Positions 2,266 through 40,218 of a stretch of DNA of 53,202 nt are shown piece by piece. Below the pieces are notes generated by a model. That model did no database searches, was not told the DNA's origin, and saw only the letters and a program-made list of their open reading frames with translations. Made by a program: the position numbers and the translations under genes. This stretch comes from Chromatiales bacterium (GTDB taxonomy: Bacteria > Pseudomonadota > Gammaproteobacteria > CAMYNG01). The stretch is from NCBI GenBank assembly GCA_027005735.1, contig JALTLF010000151.1, forward strand, positions 1 through 53,202, read 5' to 3'. Each line of letters opens with the position of its first letter. The first letter of the stretch is position 1.

Positions 2266-2649
2266 TTAGAGGGCGGCACATACCCGTTGCAGTCGCTCGC
2301 GCACTTCGCCGGCGAGTTCCTCGATACCTTCCTTGTCCACCAGGCCAAGGACAGCGGCCGGATCCATGAAGGCGACCACAACGGAGCCATCTTCTTCCTC
2401 GCGCACGACGACGTTGCAGGGCAGGAGCAGGCCGATGTCGGGATCGGCGCTCAGGGCCTTGTTGGCCAGTACCGGATTACAGGCACCGAGGATCTTGTAG
2501 GGGCGCTTGTCGATATCGAGCTTCTTCTTCATCACTGCCTTGACATCGATCTCGGTCAACACACCAAAGCCTTCCTTCTGCAACTCCTCGGTAACCTTCT
2601 CGACAGCCGCGTCGAAACCAAGTTGGGTCTTCGTGTCGAATCCATACAT
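2266..2649 (-). CDS. DUF302 domain protein
   Basis: [10 protein letters not shown]...YKILGACNP...[11 protein letters not shown]...MDP signature. Confidence 0.9.
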
Positions 2650-2678: not shown

Positions 2679-3167
2679 TCATTTCGGTGGATTGGCCTCC
2701 CGCCAGGTCCGGTAGATCTCTTCCGGCCAGCGGGAAATGATCCAGTCGATGATAGCATCAATTTCCTCGTCGCTCAGTTTCTGCTTCCATGCCGGCATGC
2801 CCCCACCCTGGGCAAGGGTTCCGTTGCGGATGACGCCCTTGAGAACGTCACGCGAGTGATGCCAGGTGTGTGCAGTACCATTGAGGGGTGGCGGCGGGAA
2901 CCTGCCCTGGGCATTACGACGCTGCCAGTTGGGATCGCCCTCGGCTTCCCTGCCGTGGCAAACTGCGCAATTTTCACGGTACAAGCGCCCACCCGTCACC
3001 ACGCGCCCGAATTCCAGGCCACGGTCCAGCGGCGCGGAACCGGGCGGCGCGGTCGCCGGCGTGTGCGCCGCCGGCGGGCGGGCGGCCTGCCGCGGTGTAT
3101 CAGCTTCCGGTGAACAGGCCGCCAGCCCCAGCAGGGAGAGCACCACAATGAGGTTCCTGAGCTTCAT
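2679..3167 (-). CDS. Lipoprotein monoheme cytochrome c
   Basis: Lipobox LAAC; heme motif CAVCH; PPPLNGTAHTWHH segment; distal Met in GGMPAW. Confidence 0.88.
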   Translation of the reverse strand: MKLRNLIVVLSLLGLAACSPEADTPRQAARPPAAHTPATAPPGSAPLDRGLEFGRVVTGGRLYRENCAVCHGREAEGDPNWQRRNAQGRFPPPPLNGTAHTWHHSRDVLKGVIRNGTLAQGGGMPAWKQKLSDEEIDAIIDWIISRWPEEIYRTWREANPPK

Positions 3168-3188: not shown

Positions 3189-6100
3189 TCACGAGTCTGC
3201 CTTGAGCTGGCGCTTGCGCCACAGCAGGAATACCGCCGGCAGCACCACCAGGGTGAGGACGGTGGCCGAGACCATGCCGCCCACCATGGGCGCGGCGATG
3301 CGGCGCATGACCTCGGAGCCCGTGCCGCCGCCGAACATGATGGGCAGCAGGCCGGCGATGATGGCCGTCACCGTCATCATGATGGGCCGCACGCGCAGCA
3401 GGGCGCCCTCGGTGACCGCCTCCTGCAGTTCTTCCAGACTCAGGTGATGCACATGGCCCGCCTGCGCCTGACGGCGATGCAGGGCCTGGTTGAGATAGAC
3501 CAGCATGATGACGCCGATCTCCACCGCCACACCGGCCAGCGCGATGAAGCCCACGCCCACCGCCACGGACATGTTGTAGCCCAGCAGGTAGAGTAGCCAG
3601 TAGCCACCCAGCAGGGCCAGCGGCAGGGTGCCCATGATGATCATGACCTCGGTGAAGTTACGGAAGTTGAGGTACAGCAGGAGGATGATGATCACCAGGG
3701 TCAGGGGCACCACGATCATCAGGCGTTCCTTGGCACGCACCATGTACTCGTACTGGCCGGACCAGGAAACGGAGTAGCCGGGTGGCAGTTCCACCTGTTC
3801 CGCCACTGCGCGCTGGGCGCGCTCGACGTAGGAGCCGATGCCAACACCGTCCTCGAGATCCACGAAGGTCCAGCCGTTGGGACGCGCATTCTCGCTCTTG
3901 ATCATGGCCGGCCCGTCCTCGACACGGATGTGCGCCACTTCACCCAGGGCGATGCGCGCCCCGCGTGGCGTGACAATGGGCAGGTTACGCAGGCGGTCCA
4001 CCGAGTCGCGCACCTCACGCGGGTAACGCACGTTGATGGGATAACGCTCCAGTCCCTCCACGCTCTCGGCGACGTTCATGCCACCCACGGCGGTGCGCAC
4101 CACGTCCTGCACGTCGGCGATATTCAGGCCGAAACGCGAGGCGGCGACGCGATCGATATCGACGGTGACGTAACGTCCGCCCACGGTGCGTTCCGAGAAG
4201 GCCGACAGGGTACCCGGTACGGTCTGCACCACCTCCTCGATACGCTTGCCGATCTCCTGGATGACATTGAGATCGGGACCCGAGACCTTGATACCCACCG
4301 GGGTCTTGATACCCGTGGCCAGCATGTCGATGCGGGTCTTGATGGGCCACACCCAGGCATTGGTCAGGCCCGGGAACTTGAGGAGGGCGTTGAATTCCTC
4401 CTTGAGTTTCGCCACCGTCATGCCCTCGCGCCACTCGCTGCGGGGTTTGAGCAGCACGGTGGTCTCGATCATGGTCAGGGGCGCCGGATCGGTGGCGGTA
4501 TCGGCACGGCCGATCTTGCCGAACACGCGCTTGACCTCGGGCACGGTGCGAATGAGGCGATCCGTCTGTTGCAGGATCTGCTGCGCCTTGCCCACCGAGA
4601 TCCCCGGGAAGGTGGTCGGCATGTACATCATGTCGCCCTCGTCGAGATCGGGCATGAATTCCGAATCGACATTCATGATGGGGACGATGATGGTCACGGC
4701 CGCCACCAGGGCGATGACCAGCACGGTACCGGGGCGCCGCAGGACGAAATTGATGAATGGCCGATAACCTGCGATGAGCACGCGGTTGACGGGATTCTCG
4801 TGCTCCGGCCGGATATGCCCGCGGATGAAATACCCCATCAATACCGGCACCAGGGTTATGGAGAGCCCCGCCGCCGCGGCCATGGCATAGGTCTTGGTAA
4901 AGGCCAGCGGCGCGAACAGGCGACCCTCCTGCGCCTCCAGGGTAAATACCGGCAGGAAGGACAGGGTGATGATCAGCAGGGAGAAGAACAACGGTGGGCC
5001 CACTTCGCGGGTCGCCTCGCGCATGATACGCCAGCGGTTTTCGTCGGTGAGCGGTTCCTTCTCGATGTGCTTGTGCACATTCTCGATCATGACGATGGCC
5101 GCATCCACCATGGCGCCGATGGCAATGGCGATACCGCCCAGCGACATGATATTGGCATTGATGCCCTGGGCATGCATGATGACGAACGCCGCCAGGATAC
5201 CGATGGGCAAGCTGATGATGGCCACCAGCGCCGAGCGCAGGTGGAACAGGAACACCGCGCACACCAGGGCGACGACGAGGAACTCCTCCAGCAGCTTGCC
5301 GTTGAGCGTATCCACCGCGCGCTCGATGAGCTGGGAGCGATCATAGGTCTCGACGATCTCCACGCCTTCCGGCAGGCCGGCCTGCAGCTCCTTCAGCTTG
5401 CGCTTGACGCCTTCGATGGTGGTCAGGGCATTTTCGCCGAAACGCATGACGATGATGCCGCCGACGACTTCACCCTCGCCGTCCAGTTCGGCGATGCCGC
5501 GGCGCATTTGCGGCCCGATACGCACCTCGGCGACATCCTTGAGCAGGATGGGCGTGCCACGATCATTGACGCCGAGGGGAATACGCCGCAGGTCGTCGAG
5601 ATCGTCGATATATCCCGTGGCGCGTACCATGAACTCCGCCTCGGCCATCTCGATGACCGATCCCCCCACTTCCTGGTTGGCACGCTTGATGGCCATGCGC
5701 ACCTTCTGCAGGGGCAGGTTGTAGGCGCGCAGGCGGTCCGGATCCAGCACCACCTGGTACTGCTTTACCATGCCGCCTATGGTGGCCACCTCGGAGACCC
5801 CTTCGACGGTCTGCAGCTCGTACTTCAGGAACCAGTCCTGCAGGGAACGCAGCTGCGCCAGGTCGTTCTGGCCGGTGCGATCCACCAGGGCATATTCATA
5901 GACCCAGCCGACGCCGGTGGCATCCGGGCCAAGGGCGGAGCGGGCCTCGGGCGGCAGGCGGCTGGCCACCTGGCTGAGGTACTCCAGCACGCGGGAACGC
6001 GCCCAGTAGGGATCCGTGCCGTCTTCGAAGATGATATACACGTAGGAATCATTGAAGAAGGAGTAGCCCCGCACGGTCACCGCCCCCGGCACCGACAGCA

Positions 6101-6317
6101 TGGCGGTGGTCAGGGGATAGGTGACCTGGTCCTCCACCACCCGGGGCGCCTGCCCCGGGTAGGTGGTCTTGATGATGACCTGTACGTCGGAGAGATCGGG
6201 GATGGCGTCCAGCGGCGTGTTCTTCACCGCGTACAGGCCCCAGCCGATCAACACCACGGTCAACAACAGAACCAGGAAGCGGTTCCCCAGTGACCAGTCA
6301 ATAATGCGATTGATCAT
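3189..6317 (-). CDS. cusA: Cu(I)/Ag(I) efflux RND permease CusA/SilA
   Basis: LDAIPDLSDVQVII N-terminal motif; Met-triad contexts YMPTT, APLTMIET and RIDMLATG; 1042 aa. Confidence 0.95.
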   Translation of the reverse strand: MINRIIDWSLGNRFLVLLLTVVLIGWGLYAVKNTPLDAIPDLSDVQVIIKTTYPGQAPRVVEDQVTYPLTTAMLSVPGAVTVRGYSFFNDSYVYIIFEDGTDPYWARSRVLEYLSQVASRLPPEARSALGPDATGVGWVYEYALVDRTGQNDLAQLRSLQDWFLKYELQTVEGVSEVATIGGMVKQYQVVLDPDRLRAYNLPLQKVRMAIKRANQEVGGSVIEMAEAEFMVRATGYIDDLDDLRRIPLGVNDRGTPILLKDVAEVRIGPQMRRGIAELDGEGEVVGGIIVMRFGENALTTIEGVKRKLKELQAGLPEGVEIVETYDRSQLIERAVDTLNGKLLEEFLVVALVCAVFLFHLRSALVAIISLPIGILAAFVIMHAQGINANIMSLGGIAIAIGAMVDAAIVMIENVHKHIEKEPLTDENRWRIMREATREVGPPLFFSLLIITLSFLPVFTLEAQEGRLFAPLAFTKTYAMAAAAGLSITLVPVLMGYFIRGHIRPEHENPVNRVLIAGYRPFINFVLRRPGTVLVIALVAAVTIIVPIMNVDSEFMPDLDEGDMMYMPTTFPGISVGKAQQILQQTDRLIRTVPEVKRVFGKIGRADTATDPAPLTMIETTVLLKPRSEWREGMTVAKLKEEFNALLKFPGLTNAWVWPIKTRIDMLATGIKTPVGIKVSGPDLNVIQEIGKRIEEVVQTVPGTLSAFSERTVGGRYVTVDIDRVAASRFGLNIADVQDVVRTAVGGMNVAESVEGLERYPINVRYPREVRDSVDRLRNLPIVTPRGARIALGEVAHIRVEDGPAMIKSENARPNGWTFVDLEDGVGIGSYVERAQRAVAEQVELPPGYSVSWSGQYEYMVRAKERLMIVVPLTLVIIILLLYLNFRNFTEVMIIMGTLPLALLGGYWLLYLLGYNMSVAVGVGFIALAGVAVEIGVIMLVYLNQALHRRQAQAGHVHHLSLEELQEAVTEGALLRVRPIMMTVTAIIAGLLPIMFGGGTGSEVMRRIAAPMVGGMVSATVLTLVVLPAVFLLWRKRQLKADS

Positions 6318-6329
6318 GATCGGCTCCCC

Positions 6330-7976
6330 TTAGTCCATTTTCATGATGGATTTGATGACATAGCCGTGGGTGGTCTCCTCCAGCTCGAAGTGCACCTTGT
6401 CTTCGGGCTTGAGAGCGGAGAGATCCACGTCCTCGGCAACATTGAAGAACATGGTCATCTCGGGCCATTCCAGCGCGGGAATGGGATCATGAGTTATCTT
6501 GATGCGCGCCTCGTCCGGGAGCACCTCGCGCACCACGCCCATGCCCATGACACCGGGCGCCGCCATGTCGTGACCGGCCTGCGCCTCGGCAGGGGGCTCG
6601 GCAGCGGCCTGCGGCGCCGTCATGCGCGCCAGGCTAGCCTTGAGGCTGGCCTCGGAATCGATGAGGAACTGGGCCGAGGTCACCACCATCTCGCCTGCGG
6701 CGAGGCCTTCCTTGATCTCGATATAGTCACCGGACTCGATACCGGCTACCACCGGGCGCGCGGCAAAGCGCCCTTCGCCCAGGGCTACAATGACGCGCTC
6801 CTCGCTGCCGGTACGGATCAATGCCTCGCGCGGGATGGAGACGACGTTCTCTTTGGCGCCACCATAGATGTGCACGGCGGCAAACATGCCCGGCTTGAGC
6901 GACTCGCCGGGGTTGTCGAAACGCAGGCGTGCGCGCAGGGTACGGGTCTTGGGATCGAGATTCGGGTAGATGTATTCCACCTTGCCTTCCCAGACGAAAC
7001 CCGGCAGATATCCGAGACGCACCTCGGCGTTCTGTCCGACCTTGACCCAGTCGGCCTGGCTCTCGAAGACCTCGGCAAGCAACCACACCGAGGAGAGATC
7101 CGCCAGGCTCATGACCTTCATCTTGGGCGTGACATACATGCCTTCGCGGATGCTCAGGTCCTCGATGATGCCGTCCTGGGAGGCATAGACCTTGACGTAC
7201 TGGTCGATCTCCCGCGTGCGACTGAGGCGCTTGATCTGCGACTGGGCGAAACCCAGCGCCACGAGGCGCTCGCGCGAGGCGCGGATGAGACGCTGGTTGC
7301 CGGTACGCAGGGCCTGTATGTATTCCTCCTGGGCATTGACCAGTTCGGGAGAATAGACCTCGAACAGCAACTGCCCCTTCCTGACCCGCTCGCCCTCGGA
7401 CTTGACCAGCAGTTTCTCGATCCAGCCCCGGGTACGCAGGTGGATATGGGTGATGAGGTTTTCATTGAAGTCCACGTAGCCCACCGTGTCGATACGGCGC
7501 CACAGCTTGCCCACTTCCGCCTGCGCGGTACGCACGCCGAGGTTGTTCTCCACCGCCGGCGAGATACGCACCGTGGGACCCTCGTCGCCGCCACCGGCCT
7601 CATCGGCATACACCGGGATGTAGTCCATGCCCATGTCGTCCTTCATGGGAACCTTGGAGGTGATCGCCGGGTTCATGGGATTGCGGTAGAACAGAATACG
7701 GCGTTCGCCACCGCCACCCGCCGCGGCCTGGGCCTGGGGTTCGGCCTCCTTTTCCACCAGCGTCATGCCGCAGATGGGGCAGGAACCCGGCTTGTCGCGG
7801 ATGATATTGGGGTGCATGGGGCAGACATACTTGGGATCCAGGTGTGCCTCGGCATGCTCCAGCGCCGTCTCCGGGGCCGCGCCCTCGGCCGGGGTCTGCT
7901 CGTCGCTGCAGGCCGCCAGTGCAAGAACCAGCAGGCCGACAAGGGAAAGACTCAGAACTCGCCAAACGGTTTTCAT
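6330..7976 (-). CDS. cusB: CusB-type RND periplasmic adaptor with two N-terminal heavy-metal-binding domains and a fused C-terminal CusF-like domain
   Basis: Lipobox LAAC; YVCPMHP...CPICGM; YRNPMNP...[11 protein letters not shown]; MFP core (GWIEKL..YSPELV..QEEY; [10 protein letters not shown]); C-terminal [18 protein letters not shown] (CusF H/W/MxM site). Confidence 0.92.
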
Positions 7977-9271
7977 CGCTCTTCTCCAAGAAGGTAGTTC
8001 AGACCGGCCTGTACCTTGGCGCGGTCGATCTTGAGGCGCAGGGCCTTCAGTTCGGTTTCAAATTCGACAATGCGCGCGCGCACGAGGGTGAGGAAATCGC
8101 CCTCGTCGGACTGGTAGGCGCTGAGTGCCGCACTGGCGTTTTCGTTGGAACGCGGGATCAGTTCACGCTGGTAGTACTGGATACGTTCATCGAGGCTGAC
8201 GCGATCCGCCTCCAGTCGCTCGAACATGCGCTTGAGGGACAGACGCTGATCGGCGAGGCGGTATTCCGCCGCGTTGCGTTCGTGTTCCCGCGCATTGAGG
8301 ATGCGGTCCTGCCGGTTGCCGGTGAACAGGGGAACGTCGAGGACCACCATGGCGGAGACGAAATCGGTCCGCGCCGTGCCATTGGGGTTCAGGCCGTCCC
8401 GGCTGCCATAGGTGATATCCACCATCCAGCCGGGGCTATAGGCCTCGCGCGCGAGATCCACGCCGTCGTTGCTCACCGCCACTTCCTGCTGGGCCGCCCT
8501 GATGAGGGGGTGAGCGGTGAGAACTTCCTGCAGGCCGGCGTTCCGCGACGGCGGAATGGCAGGCAGCCGGGCGGAGAGTGCGCGCGCCGCATGTTCGCTG
8601 CCGATCCAGCGCGCCAGTTGAGCGCGCATGCGTTCCTGGCGATTGCGAATGCGTTCTTCGCGGTCCTCGAGCAGGCCGTATTCCAGTTGCGCCTGGATGT
8701 AGTCCTGCTGCTTGCCGCGGCCGGCGGCGTACTGGCCTTCGGTGATGTCCAGCAACTGCTGGAACAGGCCGCGCGTCTTGCGCACGATGTTTTCCGCCTC
8801 GCGCCAGTAATAGACCTCCAGCCAGGCCTCGCGGACCGAACGCAACACCATGCGGCGGCGGTTCTCGGCCCGCGCCTCGGCAACGCCGGACATGTTGCCG
8901 GCACGGCGGGCGCGGATCTCCAGGGTGTCGCCGCGGGGGAACATCTGCCGGATGCCGATCTGCATCTGGGTCATGGCTTCCTGGTCCAGCCGGTAGGAAT
9001 CGACAGGCACGTTCATGGCCCCCAGCTTCAGCTGCGGGTCGGGCAGGGTATCGGCGGCGATGCGCTGTTCCTGGAAGGAACGCACCTGCTCGCCGAGGGC
9101 GCTGATCAGGGGATCCTGCCGTAGCGCCAGATCCTCTGCCTCGCGCAGTCCCAGCGCCACACCCAGCTCAGCAGCGTGGACGCTGCCGCCGGCCCACAGG
9201 CTCATGCCCATCAATAGCCCGGCCATCAGGCCCGGCCAGGCACCGGGCCTGGTCAAAATTTGCACTCTCAT
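7973..9271 (-). CDS. cusC: TolC/CusC-family outer-membrane efflux protein
   Basis: Signal peptide; LPDPQL...[13 protein letters not shown]; DVPLF; stop overlaps the cusB start (ATGA). Confidence 0.85.
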
Positions 9272-9428
9272 GTTGAAAATCCCTCGCGATACGAAATCCG
9301 TAAATCCTGCATTCTAGTCCAGTGATCAGCAGGCAGATACCGTCCATTGACCCGTTCCCTGCCGCATCGGCAAACCGACAGGCAAACCAGGGAGGTGTTT
9401 CGGCGAGAAAACCGGGGTATCCGCCCGA

Positions 9429-9785
9429 TCAGGCGGCAGGCCGGGGAGGCCGGAGATACGGTCGTGAGTCGAGGTGGGTGGGAATGGCGTGGCCTTCGGC
9501 GCTCAGGGTGTCCGGCCCGGGGACAATCTCGGCGCGTACATGCACGAGTAGCGCCCCGGTGACGAAGCTGGCGCACATGTCACACTGGCTGGGACAGGCC
9601 TGCTCGCAGCACTGGTGGGCATCCTGCTCGTGGGACGCGCAGGCGCGATCATGGCCGGCAGAGGCCGACAGCGTCGCGTTGTCGCCCGCGGGCGCGGGCA
9701 TGCCCGCCATCACCGGCAGGGGCACCGCCACCGCCAGCGACAGCAGAAGGTAGAAACGCGCTGCCTGTTTGAGAAATCCCGTCAT
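9429..9785 (-). CDS. Small exported Cys/His-rich leader protein, CopL/DUF2946-like
   Basis: ATG at 9785 preferred over TTG at 9893, which overlaps the predicted promoter. Signal peptide FYLLLSLAVAVPLPVMA; HDRACASHEQDAHQCCEQACPSQCDMC; C-terminal YLRPPRPAA. Confidence 0.7.
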   Translation of the reverse strand: MTGFLKQAARFYLLLSLAVAVPLPVMAGMPAPAGDNATLSASAGHDRACASHEQDAHQCCEQACPSQCDMCASFVTGALLVHVRAEIVPGPDTLSAEGHAIPTHLDSRPYLRPPRPAA

Positions 9786-9876
9786 ATGTCCGCTAAACAA
9801 TAGAGCAACATCAGCTGTGGTCGCTTCGGTGGGACCCCATTGTTGCCGCCACGCATGACCAGCAAGTGTAGGCCAT

Positions 9877-9918
9877 ACCATAGCCGGCCACAACGGCTAT
9901 GACCCTGATCCGGATCAA
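9877..9918 (-). promoter_or_regulatory. FNR/Anr/Dnr-type box with class II promoter geometry, oriented toward the cus operon
   Basis: Minus strand TTGAT-CCGG-ATCAG (9918-9905; 9/10 match to TTGAT-N4-ATCAA), then exactly 22 nt, then TATGGT (9882-9877). Confidence 0.55.
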
Positions 9919-9980
9919 TGGTTCCCCGGCCGGGAGGGGATCGCATCCCTGAGACAGGGCACTAATTCCGTGTCTATACT

Positions 9981-12107
9981 ATGGAAAACCCCCGGAGATC
10001 GCCTCTCATGGTCGCAGACAGCCCCAGCATCGATGCCGGCGCACTCTTTTTTTCGCGCGAGCTCAGCCTGCTGGCCTTCAACGAACGCGTCCTCGAGCAG
10101 GCCGCCGACACCGAGGTGCCCCTGCTCGAGCGCCTGCGCTACCTGTGTATTTCTTCCACCAACCTGGACGAGTTCTTCGAGATCCGCATCGCCGGCCTCA
10201 AGCAGCGACTCGCCGCGGGCGAGCTGCACGGTGAAACGGATACGCCCGCCTCCTCGGCGGCCGGCACCCTGCGCACCCTCTCGGTGCGCGCCCATCAACT
10301 GGTGGACCGGCAATACCAGTTGCTCAACGAGGTCCTGCAGCCGGCGCTGGAGGCCGAACAGATCCGCTTCATCCGCCGCGGGGACTGGGATGCCGAACAG
10401 GAACAGTGGCTGGAGGACTTCTTCCGCAATGAGCTGCTGCCGGTGCTGAGCCCCATCGGCCTCGATCCCGCGCACCCCTTTCCACGCATCCTCAACAAGA
10501 GTCTCAATTTCATCGTCTCGCTGGAGGGCAAGGATGCCTTCGGGCGCAACAGCGGCATGGCCATCGTGCAGGCGCCGCGTTCCCTGCCCCGCCTCATTCC
10601 CCTGCCCACGGGGATCGGCGGCAGCGGACCCTACGACTACGTCTTCCTGTCGTCCATCATCCATGCCTTCTCCGACCAGCTCTTCCCGGGCATGGAGATC
10701 CGCGGCTGTTACCAGTTCCGCGTCACGCGCAACAGCGATCTCTTCGTCGACGAAGAAGAGGTCGACGATCTCCTCCATGCCCTGCAGGGCGAGTTGCCCG
10801 CCCGGCGCTACGGTGACGCAGTGCGCCTCGAGGTGGCCGACAACTGCCCGCCCGACATGGCGCGCTTTCTCGCCCGCCAGTTCCACCTCGAGGAAGACGA
10901 TATCTACCAGGTCAACGGGCCGGTGAACCTCAACCGCCTGCTGGCCATCGTCGATCTCGTCGATCGCCCGGACCTCAAGTTTCCCCCCTTCACGCCGCAA
11001 CTGGACACCGCCCTCTGGCAGGGCAATGTCTTCGCCACCCTGCGCCGCCGGGACATGCTGCTCTACCACCCCTTCGACTCCTTCGTCCCGGTGATCGATT
11101 TCCTGCGCCAGGCGGCACGTGACAGCAAGGTGCTGGCCATCAAGATGACCCTCTACCGCACCGGGCCGGACTCCATCATCGTCGAGACCCTCGCCAGTGC
11201 GGCACGCGCCGGCAAGGAGGTCACGGTGGTCATCGAGTTGCGCGCGCGTTTCGACGAGGAGGAAAACATCGCCGTGGCCAGTCGCCTGCAGGAGGCCGGC
11301 GCCCACGTGGTCTATGGCGTCGTCGGCTACAAGACCCACGCCAAGATGACCCTGGTGATCCGCAGGGAGAAGGCAGGGCTGCGGCACTACGTGCACCTCG
11401 GCACCGGCAACTACCACCCGAAGACCGCGCGCGTGTACACCGACTATGGCCTGTTCACCTCCGATGCGGCCATCGGCGACGATGTACGCAAGATCTTTCT
11501 GCAACTCACCAGCCTCGGCAAGGTAACGAAGCTGAAGAAACTCCTGCAGTCGCCCTTTACCCTGCACAGCGGCCTGAGCGAGAAGATCCGGCGCGAGACC
11601 GAACATGCCGCCGCGGGCAGGACGGCGCGCATCATCATCAAGGTCAACTCCCTGGTGGAAAAAACGATGATCAAGAGCCTCTACGCCGCCTCGCAGGCGG
11701 GGGTGGCCATCCAGCTCATCGTGCGCGGCATGTGCCGCCTGCGACCGGGGGTCGCGGGGATCTCGGACAACATCGAGGTGCGCTCCATCGTCGGCCGCTT
11801 CCTGGAGCATTCACGGGTGTATTACTTCGAGAACGACGGCGCGCCCGAGGTCTATTGCGCCAGCGCCGATCTCATGGAACGCAATCTCTACCGCCGCGTG
11901 GAGGCCTGTTTCCCCATCGAAGACCCGCAACTGCGGCAGGGGATCATCGAGGATCTGCATCGCTACCTCGCCGACAACACCCACGCCTGGATCCTGCAGG
12001 AGGACGGCGAGTACCGGCGTCTGCGGCCCGCGCCCGGCGAGGCGCCCCGCCACGCCCAGGCGGAGATCCTTGCCGCCCATGTCCGAAGCCCGTCTCCGGG
12101 CGAGTGA
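9981..12107 (+). CDS. ppk1: Polyphosphate kinase 1
   Basis: RELSLLAFNERVL, NLDEFFEIR, phospho-His in KTHAKM, HLGTGNY, GRFLEHSR. Confidence 0.96.
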   Translation: MENPRRSPLMVADSPSIDAGALFFSRELSLLAFNERVLEQAADTEVPLLERLRYLCISSTNLDEFFEIRIAGLKQRLAAGELHGETDTPASSAAGTLRTLSVRAHQLVDRQYQLLNEVLQPALEAEQIRFIRRGDWDAEQEQWLEDFFRNELLPVLSPIGLDPAHPFPRILNKSLNFIVSLEGKDAFGRNSGMAIVQAPRSLPRLIPLPTGIGGSGPYDYVFLSSIIHAFSDQLFPGMEIRGCYQFRVTRNSDLFVDEEEVDDLLHALQGELPARRYGDAVRLEVADNCPPDMARFLARQFHLEEDDIYQVNGPVNLNRLLAIVDLVDRPDLKFPPFTPQLDTALWQGNVFATLRRRDMLLYHPFDSFVPVIDFLRQAARDSKVLAIKMTLYRTGPDSIIVETLASAARAGKEVTVVIELRARFDEEENIAVASRLQEAGAHVVYGVVGYKTHAKMTLVIRREKAGLRHYVHLGTGNYHPKTARVYTDYGLFTSDAAIGDDVRKIFLQLTSLGKVTKLKKLLQSPFTLHSGLSEKIRRETEHAAAGRTARIIIKVNSLVEKTMIKSLYAASQAGVAIQLIVRGMCRLRPGVAGISDNIEVRSIVGRFLEHSRVYYFENDGAPEVYCASADLMERNLYRRVEACFPIEDPQLRQGIIEDLHRYLADNTHAWILQEDGEYRRLRPAPGEAPRHAQAEILAAHVRSPSPGE

Positions 12108-12121
12108 GCCGGACCGGCGGC

Positions 12122-13648
12122 TCACTCGCAATGCAGCCGGAACGGCAGGGGCGCCAGGTACTCCGCCTCCCGGGCGAGATCGGTGGCCAGCAGGGCATGC
12201 TCCGCCAGCCAGCCAGGGGGAAACCTCAGTTCCAGTGAATTTTTGCCCGCCCTGGCCGCCGGCGCGGGGATGCCGCGCGCCCGGCGTCCGCGGTTGAACA
12301 ACACCGCGAGGCGCAGGAGGACGGCCATGCGGTGGATGAGGGACTGATCGTCGGGGTGGAAATCGCGCAATTCGGCCTGCGGGAACTTGCGCCGCTGGGC
12401 GCGCACCAGCACCGCCAGCACCCGCTGTTCCTGGCGCGAGAAACCCGGCATGTCGGCATGGGTCAGCACGTAGGCGCCGTGGCGGTGATACTGGGCATGA
12501 GCGATGTCGAGACCGATTTCGTGCAGGCGGGCCGCCCAGCGCAGCAGCCTTTCGTCGTCACCCTGCGCCAGCCCCCAGTCCTCGGCCACCTGCCGGTAGA
12601 GGGCCATGAGGCTGGCCTCCACGCGTTCTGCCTGGGCGATGTCCACCGCATAGCGCCGAGCCATGGCGCCGACGGTGGCCTCGCGCACGTCTTCGTGCTG
12701 CTTGCGCCCCAGCAGATCGTAGAGCGCGCCCTCGCGCAACGCGCCGTCGGAGACCTCCATTTCCGCGATCCCCAGTTCGTCGAAGATGGCCATGAGCACC
12801 ACCACCCCGCCGGCAAACACCGGGCGGCGCGCTGCACTCAGGCCCTCAAACTTGAGTTTTTCTACCTCACCCACCTCGATCAGGCGTTTGACCAGTTGCT
12901 CGAGGGCGGCCTTACGAATAATACCGTCCTGTCCCCTGTCCGTTCCCGTCACGCGCGCGATGGCGCGGATGGATCCCGAGGTGCCGATGGCGCGCTCCCA
13001 GCCCAGCTCCTGATAGCGCGCGCGGATCCCCTCCACCTCGCTGGCCGCGGCGAGCAGGGCCTTGCGGACGCGCTTCCTGCCCAGCCTGCCGTCGGCAAAA
13101 AAACGCCGCGTGATGGATACGCAACCCATGTAGAGGCTTTCCAGTTCCAGCGGTTCGCGGCCGCGACCGATGATGCATTCGGTACTGCCGCCGCCGATGT
13201 CCACCACCAGGCGCTGGCGACCCTCGTCGGACAGGCTGTTGGCCACGCCCGCGTAGATCAGGCGCGCCTCCTCGATACCCGAGATTATTTCCACCACGTG
13301 GTTGAGACAACGCTCCGCGCGGGCGAGGAAGCCACTGCTGTCGCGGAGCTTGCGCAGGGTATTGGTGCCCAGCACGCGCACGTGGCCCGGCGGCAGATCG
13401 CGCAGCAGGCCGGCAAAGCGTTCCAGGCAGGCCAGCGCGCGGGCTTCCACCTCGGGTGACAGGGAGCCGTCCTCGCTCAGACCCTCGGCAAGGCGCACCA
13501 TTTCCCGCTGGCGATCGACGACGGCGAAACCGTGGGGCGTGACGCGCGCGGTAATGAGATGAAAGCTGTTGGAACCGAGATCGACGGCGGCGATGAGATC
13601 ACCGTCGGCGAGGGGACGGCGATCGGCGCTGGAAAGAAAACGAAAGAT
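12122..13648 (-). CDS. ppx: Exopolyphosphatase Ppx/GppA; start uncertain (no canonical in-frame start upstream of the conserved N-terminal motif)
   Basis: The frame stays open upstream of the called ATG at 13501 and encodes IAAVDLGSNSFHL (DLGSNSFH at 13582-13559). Also DIGGGSTE, GALREG, ARLHEIG. Coordinates assume an ATC start at 13648. Confidence 0.85.
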   Translation of the reverse strand: MFRFLSSADRRPLADGDLIAAVDLGSNSFHLITARVTPHGFAVVDRQREMVRLAEGLSEDGSLSPEVEARALACLERFAGLLRDLPPGHVRVLGTNTLRKLRDSSGFLARAERCLNHVVEIISGIEEARLIYAGVANSLSDEGRQRLVVDIGGGSTECIIGRGREPLELESLYMGCVSITRRFFADGRLGRKRVRKALLAAASEVEGIRARYQELGWERAIGTSGSIRAIARVTGTDRGQDGIIRKAALEQLVKRLIEVGEVEKLKFEGLSAARRPVFAGGVVVLMAIFDELGIAEMEVSDGALREGALYDLLGRKQHEDVREATVGAMARRYAVDIAQAERVEASLMALYRQVAEDWGLAQGDDERLLRWAARLHEIGLDIAHAQYHRHGAYVLTHADMPGFSRQEQRVLAVLVRAQRRKFPQAELRDFHPDDQSLIHRMAVLLRLAVLFNRGRRARGIPAPAARAGKNSLELRFPPGWLAEHALLATDLAREAEYLAPLPFRLHCE

Positions 13649-30523: not shown

Positions 30524-33500
30524 CTACTGCGACTCGGCGAGCAGGGCCGAAATATTGTCGATCAGGTCCGTCTCCTGGAAGGGCTTGCCCATGTAACGGT
30601 TCACACCGATGGCGAGCGCGCGATCACGGTGCTTTTCACCCGTACGCGAGGTGATCATGATAATGGGGATATTCTCCAGCGCCCTGTCGTTGCGCATGTT
30701 GGTGGCCAGCTCGAAACCGTCCATGCGTGGCATCTCGATGTCCAGCAGCATGATGTCGGGCTTCACTTCCTGCAACTGGGCCAGCGCATCGACGCCGTCC
30801 TTCGCGGTGACCACCTCCATGTCGTTGCGCTCCAGCAGGCGCGTGGTGACCTTGCGCACGGTGATGGAGTCGTCGACCACCATGACCAGGGGTTTCTTCG
30901 CCTCGGCGGCCTCTTCCTCGCTCGGCGCCACCGGCATGATCTCGGCCTCGGTGTGCTCGGCGAAGTCCACCATGCGCACCAGTGCGCCAAGATCGAGGAT
31001 CAGCACGACACTGCCGTCGCCCATGATGGTGGCACCGGAAATCCCCCGCAGGGTGCTCAGTTGCGGGCCCACCGGCTTGACCACCACTTCGCGGCTGCCG
31101 ATGAGGCCATCGACGCGGATGGCGGCGCGGAAGTCACCGCTGCGCACCAGCAACAGGGGGATGCGCTCGTCGGGCGCGGGCGTGCCGGCCTCGGCCAGGC
31201 CCAGCGTGGCGCCGAGGTTGAGGTAACGGTAGTCCTGCCCTACCCACTTGTAGAGCTTCTTCTCCGACTGCTGCAACTGCTGGATGACCTCGCCGCTGAC
31301 GCGCTCGACGCCTTCCACGCCCAGCAGCGGCACGGCGTAGGTTTCGTCGGCCACGTGTACCAGCAGGGCGCGGGTGACCGACAGCGATTGCGGCAGGCGC
31401 ACGATGAAGCTGGTGCCCTTACCCTTCTCGGTATCGATCTGCAGGGCGCCGCCGAGTTTCTTGATCTCGCTGCTCACCACGTCCATGCCCACGCCACGCC
31501 CGGCGATCTGGGTGACCTCGCTGGCGGTACTGAAGCCGGACTCCATGATCAGGTCCAGCAGTTCGTTCTTGCCCGGTGTCGCGTCGGGATCGAGCAGGCC
31601 ACGGTCGATGGCGGTGGCGCGCACGGCATCGAGATCGATGCCGCGACCGTCGTCACGCATGGTGATCACCAGGTCGTTGCCCTCGCGTTCCAGGTGCAGA
31701 TGGATCTGGCCTGTTTCCTTCTTGCCCGCCGCACTGCGCTCCGCGGGGCTTTCGATACCGTGGGCGATGGCATTGCGCAGCATGTGTTCCAGCGGCGCGA
31801 GCACGCGCTCGAGCACGGTGCGATCAAGTTCATTGTCCATGCCGTGGATGTGCAACTCGGCCTGCTTGCCCAGCTCCTGGCTGGTCTGGCGCGCGATGCG
31901 CCGCAGGCGCGGTACCTGGTTGGAGAAGGGCACCATGCGCGTGCGCATGAGGCCTTCCTGCAGCTCGGTATTCACGCGTGACTGTTGCAGCAGCAGGGTT
32001 TCCGACTCGCGCGTCAGGTTGGCAAGAATGTTGCGCAGGCTGTCGAGGTCATTGAGACTCTCCATCATGCCGCGCGAGAGCTGCTGCATCATGGTGAAGC
32101 GGTCGAACTCCAGCGGGTCGAAGTCTTCGTAACTGCGTCCCGTGGTCTCCTCGAAACGGTGCTGGATCTGCGCCTCGGCCTCGATCTCAAACTTGCGCAA
32201 CTGTTCGCGCAGGCGCGTGACGGTATCGTCCAGTTCCTGCAGGTTGTAGCGGAAGGTATTGTTCTGCTGCTCGAGGCGCGAGCGGTAAATACTCACTTCG
32301 CCGGCAAAGTTGACCAGATCGTCGACGAGATCGGCGCGCACGCGGATCTGCTCGCCCTGGGGTCGCACCACGGGCCGCGCGGGCTCCTTCTCCGCCGGCG
32401 CGACATCGGGAGCGGCCTCCGGCACCGGCTCGGGCGCGCGGCCCTCCAGCGGCACCACGTTGTCGGCGCCCGGGCTGGTGTCCGGGGCTTCCTCGGCCGG
32501 GACGGTGAGATCGAGATCCGGCGCGGGCCCTTCCTCTTCCTCGGGCAACATCAATTCCATCTCCTCGGAATCGGCGCCACCCGGCTCCGGCGAGGACGCC
32601 GGGCCGTCCGTGTCATCGACCTCGGTCTCCGCAGTGGCTTCGGAGAAGTCAAATTCGATCTCCTGGGTCCGATCCGCGGCCTCCGGCGAGGACGACGCGC
32701 TCTCCTCGGCGGGAGACACGGGCGACGGCGCCGCGGCTTCTTCTGCCACCTCGCCGCCGGCGGCCAGGGTGTCGAGCTGGCCGACGAGTTCCGTCGCGGC
32801 CGCCAGGGGACCACGCCGGCGCAGCTGTTCGAGCATCTCGACGAGGCGGTCCTGCGCCTTGAGCAGCAGATTGAACATGGTCGGCGAGACCTGGAGGCGG
32901 CCATCCACCACCGCGGTCAGGAGGGTCTCGATACTGTGGGCAAGATCGCCGATCTCGCTGACCCCCGCCATGCGCGCGCCGCCCTTGAGGGTGTGGAGCT
33001 GGCGTTGCAGGGCCTCGATGTATTCACCATTGGCCTCGTCCTCGGCCCAGGCATGCAGGGTATTGTCGCTCTCCTCGAGGATTTCCGTGCCTTCTTCGAG
33101 GAAGATCTCCAGCAACTCCTCGTCATACTCCTGCGGCAGGGCCGCCGCTTCGGGCGCCGGCGCCGCGTCCGCGCCCCCGGCCGTGGCGGCATCGTCGCCC
33201 GGCGCGCTCTCCGCCGCAAGCTCGTCGTGGAGGGCCTGGATACGCGTGAGCAGGGCGCTGTTGTCGGCCAGCGGCTCGCCCGGCGTGCCCACCTGTTCCA
33301 CCGCCTGGGTGACGTACTCAACGTAGTCCTCGAGCAGATCCACCGCGGCCGTGGGCAGGGACTGCGAGACATCGGACAGCAGCTTGACGTACTTCTCGAA
33401 CAGACCGCTCAGTGCCGCCACGGGCTGCATGCCGGTGGTGCGCGAACTGCCCGAGAGGGTATGCAGGGCACGCAGCAGCTCCGGCGTGACCTCGCTGTTT

Positions 33501-36500
33501 TCCATGATGCGCGCATTGAAGATATATTCGCGCAAGGTCTTGAGGTGAACGTCGGCCTCGTTGCTGTAGATCTGGCGCAGACCGGGATCGATGTCCGGCA
33601 CCACGAACTCACCCTCGACCGCCTCGTGACTCACCGGTGGAGCGGGAGCGACACCCTCTTCCTCGAGACGCTCGATCTCCGTCTCCAGCACCTGCAGGCC
33701 GGTATCCAGATCCACCGGCGTCTCGGCCGCACCCTCCGGTGTTTCATCGGACCGTTCCTCCGCCTGTATCTCGGGAGCGGTGCCCGTGATGTCGGCTTCA
33801 CCGGGGGGCTCGGGCACGGCCTCCAGCATGTCCTCGCTGACTTCCTTGCCCTGGGAAATGTCATGGGCCATTTCCATGAGATGGAAGACCTGGTGATCCG
33901 GCGTCGTGCCCTTGCGGAAGGCATCGAACAGGGCCGGCAGGAGGGCCTGCGCCTTTTCCAGCAGGCGGAAGATGGCCGGTGTGGGCTCGATGGTCCCGTC
34001 GATGACGCGGTTGAGCATGTTCTCGCAGGCCCAGGCAAACTCGCCCAGATCCTGTGCCCCCACCAGGCGGCCACTGCCCTTGAGGGTATGGAAGGAACGT
34101 CGCAGCTCCTTGAGCGATTCGCTGTCCTCCTGGTTGGCCAGCCAGCGCGGCAGCAGGCGGGAGATATTGCCGTGCTCCTCATCGGCCTCTTCGAGGAAGA
34201 TTTCGATGATCTCGTCATCGATCTCCTCGATCACCGAGGCCGGCTGTGCGGCGCTGCTCGAAGCGGCGGTGGGCGCCGGCGTGTTCGCGGTGTCGCCGGC
34301 GGCGGTCTCGAGGGCGACCTCTTCCTCGACGCTGAAGGGGATCTCGCCGCTGGCAAGGGCATCGAGATCCAGATCGGAGAGATCGTCCATGCCCTCGATA
34401 CGAAACTCTTCGCTACCCAGTCCCTTGCGCGTTTCACTGCTGTCATTGACCGGCGACAGATCCACCACCGTGTCTTCGTCGGGGCCTCCACCCATGCCGG
34501 TATCGATGTCGATACCGCCTGCCGCCTCGCCGTCAGCGGCACCTTCCACATCCGGCGCCCGCAGTTCGGCGGTATCCAGTTCCGGGCCTTCCTCCTCGAG
34601 CGGGATATCGAGCAACATCTCTTCCGAGTCGGCCCCTTCCAGGGCATCGCCGATATCGGTCAGGGTCTCGGCCGAGGGATCGATGCCGCCCTCGGGCATG
34701 GGGATGTCGGTCAGGGTGTCATCGTTGAGATCGACCGAATCCGCCTGCGGAGGAGACTCCGGCAGGTCGCCGAGCTCGATATCGACCATGGTTTGATCAT
34801 CATGATCAGGAAAATCATCTGTCGACAACACCTCCGTATCGGCGCTACTGCGTTCATGCACATCCGTGTACTCGGTATCACTGAGCAGGCCAAGCTGGGT
34901 GAGACTCTGCTCGGCCACCTGCAGGATGGACTCGGGACGGCCCCAGCCCTCCATGAGGGACTCGAGATAGTATTCGATGCTGCTGATGGCATCGGCGAGC
35001 ACATCCAGCGAGGAGTCTTCAGGCGCTATCTTGCCGGGAATGAGTTCCTGCTCGATGTAACGGCCGGCGACACTGAGCAGTTCCGCCGCCTGCTCGAGAT
35101 TGAGCATCGCCAGGCCACCCTGGATCTGCGCCATGTATTGGGGCACCTTCTCCAGCAGGTCGGGCCGCGAGGGCGTGCGGCTGAAGTCGGTGAGGGCCTC
35201 CTTGATGCGCGCCATGTCCTCGGAGACTTCCTTGAGGACCGACTTCATCAGCTGGCGGTCGGTAATGTTTATCGAGGTGGCAACGGCATCGGCGTCCTCC
35301 GCCTCTTCGTTGACCACCCGCGCGGTAGACAGATCACCGAGTGCACCCTCCACCGCCAGCAGGGAAGCGGCGGTATCCATGAGCACCGCCTCGTCGATGT
35401 CACGCTTGCCCTGCACCATGTCGTTGAGGACCGCGGCCTGGTCGATCACTTCCTTGCGCTGCACGCCGAGGCCCAGCATGCCGAGGGTATCGGACATCTG
35501 GGTGAGGGTTTCGGCCAGTCCCCGCAGGGTACCGGTATCGCGCGACTCGCTGCGCACGAACAGGTCGAGGCCGTCCTTGACGCGGGTCAGATCGTCGATG
35601 AGCACCGCCGAGACGGTCTTCATCAGTTCGGCGTTGGGACCCGTCATGTCGGCACGGGCCTTCTCCAGGGATTCCTTGTCGGGCAGGGCCTCGGCAAGGC
35701 CGAAGGCATCCTTGAGCTCGGTAACCAGTTCGCCGCTGGAGCGGGAGCAGGAGACGTAATAAAGGAGGTTCTTCAGCAACTCGGTGGGCGGTGTCTCCTT
35801 CAGCGCCGCCTCGCCATGATCGATGATGCGCTTGATCTGGCGATCGACGTTACCCATCAGCAGCTTCAGTGCCACGCTGGATTCGAGCCCGCCGTCGCGC
35901 AGACCCTCCACCACGCCACTGGCCACCCAGAACATGCGGTTGGCCTCGTTGTCGTTGGCGGCCTTGCGCAGCTTGTCGATGACCTGCTGGATCCTGTTCA
36001 GGCTGCCGTCGGGGTCGGTATCGCGGAACCAGCCCAGCAGGCCCAGGTGGTAGGCATGGCGCAACTTGCTGGCGAGATGCGGCAGGTCCTCGGTCTCCTC
36101 GGCCAGCGGCGCCACCAGCGGCGCCTCGACGGAGAGATCGGGCTGGAAGAGGGCGTTTTCCGTCAACAGGGCTTCGCCGCGCGCGGCACGCAGATCATTG
36201 AGCAGGGGCAGCAACAGGACCGGCATGTCCCGCGCGCCGTTCTGCAGGCGCTCCAGGTAATCCGGCAACTGCAGGATACCGCGCATCAGGACCTCGTAGG
36301 CGTCCTCGCGGTTGTTGACCCTGTTCTCGAGCAGGGCCTCGGTGAGCTTCTCCATCTCCTCGGCCACCATGGAGGCGCCGTAGAGTTCCACCATCTGCAG
36401 GGTGCCGTGCACCTGGTGCAGGTAGTTGATGCAGAAACGCAGCTGCGACTCGTCGTCCGGCGTCTCGACATAGGTCTCGAGTGCCGAACGCGCCTGGTTG

Positions 36501-36574
36501 AGAGTGTCGTCGATCTCCGACTTGACCCAGCCAAGCGTGTTGATATCGAGCTGACTCTGGCTCGGCACGCTCAT
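30524..36574 (-). CDS. chpA: ChpA hybrid histidine kinase (multiple Hpt domains, HATPase, CheW, receiver), 2016 aa
   Basis: Start MSVPSQ (ATG at 36574, overlapping the pilK stop); TLGWVKSEI; Hpt HTLKG motifs; HMLRNAIAHG, DDGRG, GRGVGMDVV; C-terminal VVDDS...DIEMPRMDG. Confidence 0.93.
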   Translation of the reverse strand: MSVPSQSQLDINTLGWVKSEIDDTLNQARSALETYVETPDDESQLRFCINYLHQVHGTLQMVELYGASMVAEEMEKLTEALLENRVNNREDAYEVLMRGILQLPDYLERLQNGARDMPVLLLPLLNDLRAARGEALLTENALFQPDLSVEAPLVAPLAEETEDLPHLASKLRHAYHLGLLGWFRDTDPDGSLNRIQQVIDKLRKAANDNEANRMFWVASGVVEGLRDGGLESSVALKLLMGNVDRQIKRIIDHGEAALKETPPTELLKNLLYYVSCSRSSGELVTELKDAFGLAEALPDKESLEKARADMTGPNAELMKTVSAVLIDDLTRVKDGLDLFVRSESRDTGTLRGLAETLTQMSDTLGMLGLGVQRKEVIDQAAVLNDMVQGKRDIDEAVLMDTAASLLAVEGALGDLSTARVVNEEAEDADAVATSINITDRQLMKSVLKEVSEDMARIKEALTDFSRTPSRPDLLEKVPQYMAQIQGGLAMLNLEQAAELLSVAGRYIEQELIPGKIAPEDSSLDVLADAISSIEYYLESLMEGWGRPESILQVAEQSLTQLGLLSDTEYTDVHERSSADTEVLSTDDFPDHDDQTMVDIELGDLPESPPQADSVDLNDDTLTDIPMPEGGIDPSAETLTDIGDALEGADSEEMLLDIPLEEEGPELDTAELRAPDVEGAADGEAAGGIDIDTGMGGGPDEDTVVDLSPVNDSSETRKGLGSEEFRIEGMDDLSDLDLDALASGEIPFSVEEEVALETAAGDTANTPAPTAASSSAAQPASVIEEIDDEIIEIFLEEADEEHGNISRLLPRWLANQEDSESLKELRRSFHTLKGSGRLVGAQDLGEFAWACENMLNRVIDGTIEPTPAIFRLLEKAQALLPALFDAFRKGTTPDHQVFHLMEMAHDISQGKEVSEDMLEAVPEPPGEADITGTAPEIQAEERSDETPEGAAETPVDLDTGLQVLETEIERLEEEGVAPAPPVSHEAVEGEFVVPDIDPGLRQIYSNEADVHLKTLREYIFNARIMENSEVTPELLRALHTLSGSSRTTGMQPVAALSGLFEKYVKLLSDVSQSLPTAAVDLLEDYVEYVTQAVEQVGTPGEPLADNSALLTRIQALHDELAAESAPGDDAATAGGADAAPAPEAAALPQEYDEELLEIFLEEGTEILEESDNTLHAWAEDEANGEYIEALQRQLHTLKGGARMAGVSEIGDLAHSIETLLTAVVDGRLQVSPTMFNLLLKAQDRLVEMLEQLRRRGPLAAATELVGQLDTLAAGGEVAEEAAAPSPVSPAEESASSSPEAADRTQEIEFDFSEATAETEVDDTDGPASSPEPGGADSEEMELMLPEEEEGPAPDLDLTVPAEEAPDTSPGADNVVPLEGRAPEPVPEAAPDVAPAEKEPARPVVRPQGEQIRVRADLVDDLVNFAGEVSIYRSRLEQQNNTFRYNLQELDDTVTRLREQLRKFEIEAEAQIQHRFEETTGRSYEDFDPLEFDRFTMMQQLSRGMMESLNDLDSLRNILANLTRESETLLLQQSRVNTELQEGLMRTRMVPFSNQVPRLRRIARQTSQELGKQAELHIHGMDNELDRTVLERVLAPLEHMLRNAIAHGIESPAERSAAGKKETGQIHLHLEREGNDLVITMRDDGRGIDLDAVRATAIDRGLLDPDATPGKNELLDLIMESGFSTASEVTQIAGRGVGMDVVSSEIKKLGGALQIDTEKGKGTSFIVRLPQSLSVTRALLVHVADETYAVPLLGVEGVERVSGEVIQQLQQSEKKLYKWVGQDYRYLNLGATLGLAEAGTPAPDERIPLLLVRSGDFRAAIRVDGLIGSREVVVKPVGPQLSTLRGISGATIMGDGSVVLILDLGALVRMVDFAEHTEAEIMPVAPSEEEAAEAKKPLVMVVDDSITVRKVTTRLLERNDMEVVTAKDGVDALAQLQEVKPDIMLLDIEMPRMDGFELATNMRNDRALENIPIIMITSRTGEKHRDRALAIGVNRYMGKPFQETDLIDNISALLAESQ

Positions 36575-40210: not shown

Positions 40211-40218
40211 CTTCGTCG

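Follow-up and report, generated by a model that had tools for sequence, protein, structure and literature searches.

The open reading frame (ORF) that comes first in a cusCBA-type efflux operon, located in a 53,202-nucleotide (nt) stretch of a Chromatiales bacterium genome (contig JALTLF010000151.1, positions 1 to 53,202; this whole stretch is hereafter called the window), is a real gene under purifying selection and, judged by its sequence, a distant and divergent CopL-like relative within the CopL/CutF/CruR class of copper-sensing leader peptides. We read it, at a probability of roughly 0.5, as a leader that may act in cis through translational arrest, i.e. as a short, exported and Cys-rich CopL-like member of the CutF/CruR class. 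The usual explanation for copper/silver pumps of the resistance-nodulation-division (RND) type is transcriptional control of the CusRS or CueR kind; if the arrest reading is true, and the pump is gated by nothing but an exported sensor peptide during its synthesis, post-transcriptional logic would extend to efflux systems.

The leader ORF and its family

The leader has the following anatomy (aa, amino acids):
9429..9785, minus strand: leader ORF, 118 aa plus TGA stop; predicted CopL-like exported Cys-rich peptide
9702..9785, minus strand: putative Sec signal peptide, residues 1-28 (...VMA/G), from the hydropathy peak and the AlphaFold2 helix 2-20
9573..9611, minus strand: Cys cluster CCEQACPSQCDMC, residues 59-71, with conserved Cys C59/C60, C64 and C68 (alignments A1, A4, A6)
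9444..9452, minus strand: R112-P113-P114, candidate arrest motif, with four codons and the stop downstream; P113/P114 invariant, R112 at least 90% conserved

Read directly from the sequence, the minus-strand frame starts with ATG at 9785 and reaches its TGA stop (9431-9429) after 118 codons; the 118-aa first ORF, the Cys cluster, the YLRPPRPAA tail (four residues after PP) and the 157-nt spacer to cusC, all listed by the first-pass annotation (an earlier reading of this DNA from the sequence alone), were confirmed. The N-terminus is basic and passes into a hydrophobic stretch ending VMA/G (maximum 15-residue Kyte-Doolittle mean of 2.18, for the segment beginning at residue 11). The AlphaFold2 model (36-sequence alignment; mean predicted local distance difference test score, pLDDT, of 52.8) is confident only for the signal helix (residues 2-20) and, at low confidence, predicts no stable fold beyond it.

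That the ORF is a gene follows from its comparison with a 64%-identical homologue (L001:3480-3836): the ratio of nonsynonymous (dN) to synonymous (dS) divergence is 0.19 (dS 1.43), the corresponding dN/dS of cusC is 0.12, and conservation within the leader is greatest in the signal peptide, across the Cys block and over the final 14 residues. The homologue occupies the same position in locus L001, part of a gammaproteobacterial metagenome-assembled genome in which CusC is 80% identical to that of the window. It is one of three homologues (99, 87 and 64% identity) recovered by a word-indexed search of 5.8 billion proteins. HMMER, run against 1.84 billion representatives, gave five matches at E <=0.001, among which P0003 was the sole true homologue, and it added no new one; the four others, long proteins matched in many Cys-rich stretches, were read as compositional and rejected. 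No match at E <=1 was obtained when the leader ORF was compared with plasmids by tblastn. Endings of the (R/K/Q)PP type 2-5 residues from the stop were found in two of the 265 ORFs of at least 60 aa in the window, the leader being one. The other (40092-40280, plus strand; 62 aa, 8 Cys) is probably not real, since a CheW gene covers part of the same DNA on the opposite strand.

For an unbiased sample of upstream regions, 24 loci were gathered with the CusC protein and not with the leader, two of which (L004 and L011) contained too little upstream DNA. Eight of the remaining 22 loci (L001, L002, L003, L008, L010, L012, L019 and L024) have a same-strand upstream ORF of 115-151 aa with a hydrophobic N-terminus, a Cys cluster and an (L/F/Y)(R/K)PP tail followed by 2-4 residues; judged by these hallmarks, unrelated genomes have the same kind of ORF immediately ahead of cusC-like genes. 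A different, SilD-like tail (PP...C(V/C)(F/Y), ending ...C(V)(F/Y)L(D/K)) was encountered at five loci (L005, L006, L007, L009 and L023), and in L021 a PP stands 13 residues before the C-terminus (PP is missing from the last 15 residues of the homologue in L022). Hence, PP within the last 15 residues occurs at 14 of the 22 loci. The other upstream contents were a 191-219-aa membrane protein (L013, L014, L018 and L020), a 397-aa ORF (L015), a DUF411 gene (L016) and, in L017, nothing.

Leader-type ORFs were also present at two further plasmid loci (Pseudomonas aeruginosa p12939-PER and Glaciecola pGLAAG01), the latter of which has a DUF411 gene between the leader-type ORF and cusC, together with a divergently encoded heavy-metal response regulator. 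In Aliiglaciecola lipolytica (L012:3580-3980) the spacer reaches about 400 nt, swollen by tandem copies resembling repetitive extragenic palindromic elements (approximately 60-90 nt each; GTAGCATGGGATTTATCCCATGG...GCGGGGCTAAAGCCCCACC). Two Xanthomonas plasmids (L029:19447-19842 and L030:19454-19849) encode a different Cys-rich ORF, of 131 aa and with the tail ...SDPPPLQRFCSLLI, before TolC/CusBA genes.

A family profile built from ten motif-bearing ORFs retrieved 77 proteins, none of which has a precomputed Pfam domain; together with the window leader and seven ORFs from the loci they form a family set of 85 unannotated, exported and Cys-rich proteins (about 110-145 aa). Of the 77 profile-found proteins, 76 carry PP at 3-5 residues from the C-terminus. 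Conservation of the RPP tail in homologues had been set by the first-pass annotation as a test on which its idea could fall, and the tail was found to be kept, with (R/K/Q)PP lying 2-5 residues from the end in 84/85 members. Although the RPP-type ORFs share just 10-20% identity with the window leader, C64 and P113/P114 do not vary among them and C59/C60 and R112 hardly do (at least 90% for C59 and R112); C68 joins the conserved residues in a larger alignment. The metal motif that is kept is thus CxxxC (C60-C64, C64-C68); the CxxC proposed by the first-pass annotation (C68/C71) is present in the window, but only close homologues retain C71, so that this is not the pair conserved in the family. 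From the Cys motif to R112 the window leader spans 43 (from C68) or 47 residues (from C64), and the spacing ranges over 39-47 residues across subgroups. The consensus tail consists of a hydrophobic residue, RPP and a further 2-5 residues. As far as the alignments go, the only invariant features of the family are two to three Cys and a near-terminal Pro-Pro, before which a hydrophobic residue and Arg usually stand. The family comprises at least 77 protein clusters, every one of them labelled hypothetical and lacking an above-threshold Pfam domain, and would help annotators to recognise a frequent but so far unnamed gene at the head of cus-like operons.

Relation to CopL, CutF, CruR and other small exported proteins

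The link between the leader and CopL comes in part from a comparison of alignments: hhalign matched the window subgroup (A8) to a CopL-positive set (A9) with 73.4% probability (E 3e-05, 62 columns) over the signal and the Cys motif, not the tail, which is suggestive of homology and not a proof of it. The CopL family model NF033807 (cut-off 40 bits) gave no match for the window leader, P0003 or the L001 homologue, and matched below its cut-off 7 of 36 relatives and, in a wider set, 8/47 proteins at 15.9-30.2 bits (best match 5.6e-07, 30.2 bits, profile positions 6-128 of 129). The CopL search suggested by the first-pass annotation was therefore negative for the leader and faintly positive around it. 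Its companion suggestion, DUF2946, did not hold: PF11162 (gathering score 23.7 bits) has no match to the leader and stays below threshold in 4/36 relatives (the best scoring 19.1 bits, with E 0.0023, over profile positions 4-73 of 117). DUF6660 matches 3/36 relatives. In the ESM Atlas the nearest clusters are unnamed, and the nearest named ones (a DUF6660 cluster and a cluster that is 26% DUF2946, both with a score of 0.95) serve as leads only.

The CopL-type pattern can be seen in full on Xanthomonas citri plasmids. One protein named 'CopL family' (L030:37770-38189; 139 aa, ...DCCKSSACRCACVHAC...) ends HLIRPPIG and is encoded 115 nt before copA (copA-copB); another (L029:37009-37560, minus strand) ends RLFRPPIG and precedes a TonB-dependent receptor and PepSY genes. 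Their Cys clusters read ...DCCKSSACRCAC and ...QCDCSTTSCDCSC. Since the L029 gene heads a TonB-dependent receptor/PepSY cluster, CopL-type leaders are not tied to copA; the same neighbourhood is the genomic context of CruR. Like the window leader, CopL has a hydrophobic N-terminus and a CC-x3/4-C cluster and is the first gene of a copper operon, ahead of a long spacer. Its hydrophobic-residue-RPP motif lies approximately 36-44 residues after the Cys cluster and 2-3 residues before the stop (four residues follow PP in the window leader). The two differ in what lies downstream, a multicopper oxidase (copA) for CopL and an RND outer-membrane factor in the window.

The CopL/CutF/CruR-like anatomy that the first-pass annotation recognised (signal, Cys cluster, near-stop Pro-Pro, first position in a metal operon, long spacer) is borne out, and the 43-47-residue gap belongs to the same anatomy. 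CutF (Rhodobacter capsulatus cutFOG; DUF2946-like) shares with the window leader a Sec signal, CxxxC and a Pro-rich C-terminus, and is described as acting in cis, copper switching the downstream detoxification gene on (PMC9973294; bioRxiv 10.1101/2025.02.05.636593). The filters by which CutF-like proteins were compiled (<150 aa, PP in the last 15 residues, an N-terminal signal and a same-strand next gene within <=1000 nt; PMC9973294) admit the window leader: 118 aa, PP four residues from the end, a predicted signal and cusC at 157 nt. Unlike the window leader, CutF has PPP, depends on elongation factor P and precedes a short spacer whose stem-loop covers the Shine-Dalgarno (SD) sequence, whereas the window has RPP, 157 nt and no SD mask above chance.

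CruR (Bordetella pertussis bp2923; DUF2946) likewise has an export signal and a Cys motif some 45 residues before Pro-Pro (PMC9426467). Its authors describe it, too, as devoid of a stable fold, place its Pro motif three residues from the end and before a G+C-rich spacer of 162 nt (157 nt in the window), and report that the 45-residue CXXC-RAPP distance matters for regulation (PMC9426467). In vitro it was shown to arrest when its pair of Pro codons occupies the P and A sites (PMC12992588). It differs from the window leader in its CXXC and RAPP motifs and in its output, as copper relieves the stall and the uptake receptor goes off.

SilD/CusD of Cupriavidus and Ralstonia resemble the leader in being Cys/His-rich and exported and in preceding an RND sil/cus operon. 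They are set apart by a tail of PPP plus about 10 residues ending ...LHCCFRI and by a 71-72-nt spacer in which a clear hairpin adjoins or covers the SD; homology to SilD-type proteins was rejected (hhalign A4 versus A5, 5.7% probability). In the C. metallidurans SilD (L025:1260-1333) and Ralstonia (L027:1351-1423) spacers the 5' arm of this hairpin begins within about 8 nt of the stop and the 3' arm abuts or includes the SD (Ralstonia arms CCUCCGAAGCAACG and CGUUGCUUUCCGGAGG), which is the classic CutF-like arrangement, placed ahead of an RND operon. CzcI (Cupriavidus czcICBA) is likewise small and exported, and its gene immediately precedes those of an RND metal pump; in contrast to the leader it is reported to lack a C-terminal Pro motif (PMC9973294) and is described as a periplasmic damper of the pump (PMC10127602), and its model found weak matches in only 2/36 relatives.

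The association of such leaders with RND pumps is already in print as bioinformatics, and in calling this a candidate for an undescribed system the first-pass annotation overstated its novelty. A 2023 mBio survey (PMC9973294) compiled 5,334 CutF-like proteins, labelled CopL, SilD and CusD in its similarity network and listed RND OEP genes (CusC/CzcC/SilC) as their commonest downstream neighbour. Metal-related genes are listed downstream of RAPP/RGPP peptides in PMC12992588, in whose main text the word 'efflux' is absent. The further statement that RND targets lacked an experiment stands, as none turned up in the literature searched. For C. metallidurans, PMC10304878 describes cusD alone as expressed without added metal and cusDCBAF as copper-induced, with no two-component system nearby; this would also fit an attenuation between cusD and cusC.

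Proposed mechanism and competing explanations

The arguments below involve the following features of the leader-cusC spacer:
9272..9428, minus strand: spacer, 157 nt, 56% identical to L001 overall, with conserved blocks
9421..9436, minus strand: hairpin across the leader stop codon, CCGCC UGAUCG GGCGG type, -10.5 kcal/mol in the window and in L001
9381..9420, minus strand: C-rich, G-poor tract after the stop hairpin (16 C / 7 G), possible Rho loading site
9345..9397, minus strand: tentative, weak central hairpin (RNAalifold, window plus L001; 4 pairs changed on both sides)
9307..9323, minus strand: conserved block ACTGGACTAGAATGCAG with a -10-like TAGAAT (9316-9311), about 40 nt before the cusC ATG (comparison with L001)
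9280..9285, minus strand: cusC SD sequence GAGGGA, conserved in L001

By analogy with CutF and CruR, we propose that the ribosome would pause with P113/P114 at the peptidyl-transferase centre, when the Cys cluster, 43-47 residues back, would have just left the exit tunnel. Cu(I) bound to the cluster could alter folding or pulling force and thereby the duration of the pause, and pause length would set cusCBA expression in cis (as in CutF, CruR and CopL). Because copper must raise the expression of a pump, we adopted the logic of CutF, in which copper lengthens the stall (bioRxiv 10.1101/2025.02.05.636593) and, transferred to the window, the stall would raise cusCBA expression; the logic of CruR would need inverting, since copper there shuts off an uptake receptor.

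A ribosome held at 9449-9444 would reach approximately 9432, keep the stop hairpin (9436-9421) open and adjoin the C-rich tract. As in CruR, it might protect the transcript from premature (possibly Rho-dependent) termination or from decay, which is a guess, and our confidence in such transcript-level coupling is low. We favour it over SD unmasking because the stop hairpin and the C-rich tract are within the reach of the ribosome, no SD mask is found there, and the spacer is about as long as the 162 nt of CruR. A broader proposal, that leaders of the hydrophobic-residue-RPP CopL type constitute a mechanistic subclass of their own, in which a copper-prolonged pause four codons ahead of the stop would shield the long and structured spacer from premature (Rho-dependent) termination and turn on an RND Cu/Ag operon in the absence of a local transcription factor, appears unlikely to us when taken as a whole; it would unite the copper logic of CutF with the transcript-level coupling of CruR, on a target class untried experimentally within the literature searched.

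The palindrome that the first-pass annotation saw across the leader stop does exist, and L001 has an identical stem with another loop; all 6 pairs are invariant and so provide no covariation evidence. The fold of the whole region is no better than that of shuffled sequences (z = -1.01), and Rfam has no family at E <=1 across 9150-10050. Outside the window, a response of the cusC ribosome-binding site (RBS) to masking by a stalled ribosome was seen only in L002, which ranked 1 of 28, and in L028, which ranked 3 of 29, and the consensus fold of the L002, L003 and L008 spacers is weak (-3.7 kcal/mol).

A number of results weigh against the arrest reading or the coupling proposed for it. The leader itself matches 0 Pfam families at E <=10 and 0 NCBIfam models at E <=1, and its tail (L-R-P-P plus four residues, with no Ala) is not RAPP. 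The RPP and Cys columns sit inside the gathering profile, which renders tail conservation among the 77 proteins partly circular (for this reason the eight CusC-fetched loci are the independent evidence), and most of these proteins come from a single Psychromonas/Vibrio-like clade. Past the stop, C exceeds G only modestly, and the first 50 nt of L001 show no such excess (13 C, 13 G). No intrinsic terminator was predicted in the window spacer (the L001 stop hairpin was flagged, weakly, as one). Covariation involves two sequences only, the window and L001, and the 7 pairs changed on both sides (3.5 in shuffles, 8/500 of which reach this value) belong to a structure derived from that same pair. 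The best duplex of the SD segment within the spacer (-16.9 kcal/mol) is equalled by 33% of 500 dinucleotide shuffles (42% for L001). RNAalifold on the two loci proposed a helix of leader codons 9478-9462 with the SD, but such an anti-SD from the 3' coding part of the leader was rejected, as 75% and 84% of shuffles were as good. When a 28-nt ribosome footprint at the PP codons was masked, being held unpaired, in partition-function folds, the cusC RBS did not open (0.33 to 0.32 in the window, 0.40 to 0.40 in L001). An RNA switch at the window locus is thus not supported.

We consider somewhat unlikely, although it is the most credible alternative, that the leader product acts in trans as a periplasmic or membrane-tethered copper-binding protein, which would feed Cu(I) to CusF/CusB or damp the pump, with the tail serving as a binding or turnover signal. 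Purifying selection runs along the full protein length and not along the two motifs only, and the Cys/His/Met-rich composition suits Cu(I) binding. Published interpretations of neighbouring systems speak for it, at the expense of arrest: CusD has been read as an exported Cu-binding lipoprotein that feeds CusF (PMC10304878), and periplasmic CzcI as quenching CzcCBA activity (PMC10127602). In addition, the DUF411 gene that intervenes on the Glaciecola plasmid indicates that adjacency to cusC is not strict. Against it, AlphaFold2 offers no confident fold outside the signal helix, and a Pro-Pro held at a near-fixed 2-5 residues from the stop in 10-20%-identical sequences is hard to explain for a folded chaperone. 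Moreover, CopL, the closest named relative, is reported not to act in trans (PMC9973294), and the leader is tied neither to SilD-type proteins (no homology detectable by hhalign) nor, beyond the weak matches mentioned, to CzcI.

Quite improbable, in our estimation, is that cusCBA has its own copper-responsive promoter/operator in the spacer, served by a regulator encoded elsewhere, the small ORF being a separate transcription unit. The spacer does contain sharply conserved blocks in spite of saturated synonymous sites (dS >1), namely TTGCCTGTCGG, ACTG(G/A)ACTAGAAT(G/T)CAG (9323-9307, including the -10-like TAGAAT) and CGCGAGGGA; L003 shows an 11/12 sigma-70 match just 3' of the leader stop, and the Glaciecola locus has its divergent heavy-metal response regulator. 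Yet no sigma-70 consensus promoter (at least 8/12) was found in the spacers of the window, L024, L026 and L028, and matches elsewhere were not above shuffles. Nor does this explanation account for the constant same-strand upstream ORF and its tail, and no regulator was met among the scanned ORFs of the window.

The model of the first-pass annotation, according to which arrest at RPP melts a 9410-9398/9296-9280 helix that masks the cusC SD (purely translational gating, as CutF is described to work; PMC9973294; bioRxiv 10.1101/2025.02.05.636593), is in our view very improbable: the two segments can pair (over 13 bp, interrupted by a 4-nt bulge; -11.6 kcal/mol) and post-stop SD-masking hairpins occur in the SilD and Ralstonia loci and, by eye, in the Xanthomonas copL-copA spacer, but the helix figures in neither the minimum-free-energy fold nor the centroid fold, is less stable than the best duplex, itself at chance level, has a 5' arm unconserved in L001, lies 19-31 nt past the stop, beyond the reach of a ribosome stalled four codons before it, and masking of the stall site leaves RBS pairing unchanged.

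The cus operon and the rest of the window

The cusCBA operon announced by the first-pass annotation was confirmed by domain matches (OEP/TolC-like, CusB and CusA/CzcA), and the intergenic region on the other side of the leader holds a candidate operator:
7973..9271, minus strand: cusC-like outer-membrane factor (OEP/TolC-type), 432 aa, ATG at 9271 (Pfam OEP 1.8e-35)
6330..7976, minus strand: CusB-type adaptor with N-terminal HMBD and C-terminal CusF domain, 548 aa (domain matches)
3189..6317, minus strand: CusA/CzcA heavy-metal RND pump, 1042 aa (TIGR00914, 1273.7 bits)
9906..9917, no strand assigned: perfect 12-bp palindrome TGATCCGGATCA, candidate operator in the ppk-leader intergenic region

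The palindrome falls within a block of about 30 bp that is near-identical in L001, and no binding protein was identified for it. The gene for polyphosphate kinase (ppk, 9981..12104, plus strand) lies upstream of the leader in divergent orientation and is followed by ppx (together 9981-13501). The first-pass statement that cusRS and cueR are absent from the window holds for the 67 ORF translations scanned with Pfam, which comprise no MerR-type or OmpR-type regulator and no metal-responsive transcription factor, the scan being incomplete for ORFs below about 90 aa and for some of 90-150 aa. With no nearby regulator found to confound the outcome, the locus is a reasonable candidate for experiment.

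The CusB adaptor is a three-part fusion (HMBD at residues 49-76, an HlyD_D23 core and CusF at residues 476-546), and no separate cusF gene was seen within the operon. On the 3' side of cusA, a c-type cytochrome gene (162 aa, 2679-3167, minus strand) and a DUF302 gene (127 aa, 2266-2649, minus strand) follow with short gaps and may belong to the operon. The remainder of the window is housekeeping in nature (ppx, fba, pyk, pgk, gap, tkt, metK, ahcY and metF), with pyrB-like and pyrC-like genes, pilT/pilU-like ATPases and a Chp/Pil-type chemosensory cluster. This cluster includes, at 30524-36838 (minus strand), the gene of a ChpA-like hybrid kinase of 2104 aa, in which four stretches matched Hpt, flanked by CheW, CheB, CheR and a PilJ-type methyl-accepting chemotaxis protein.

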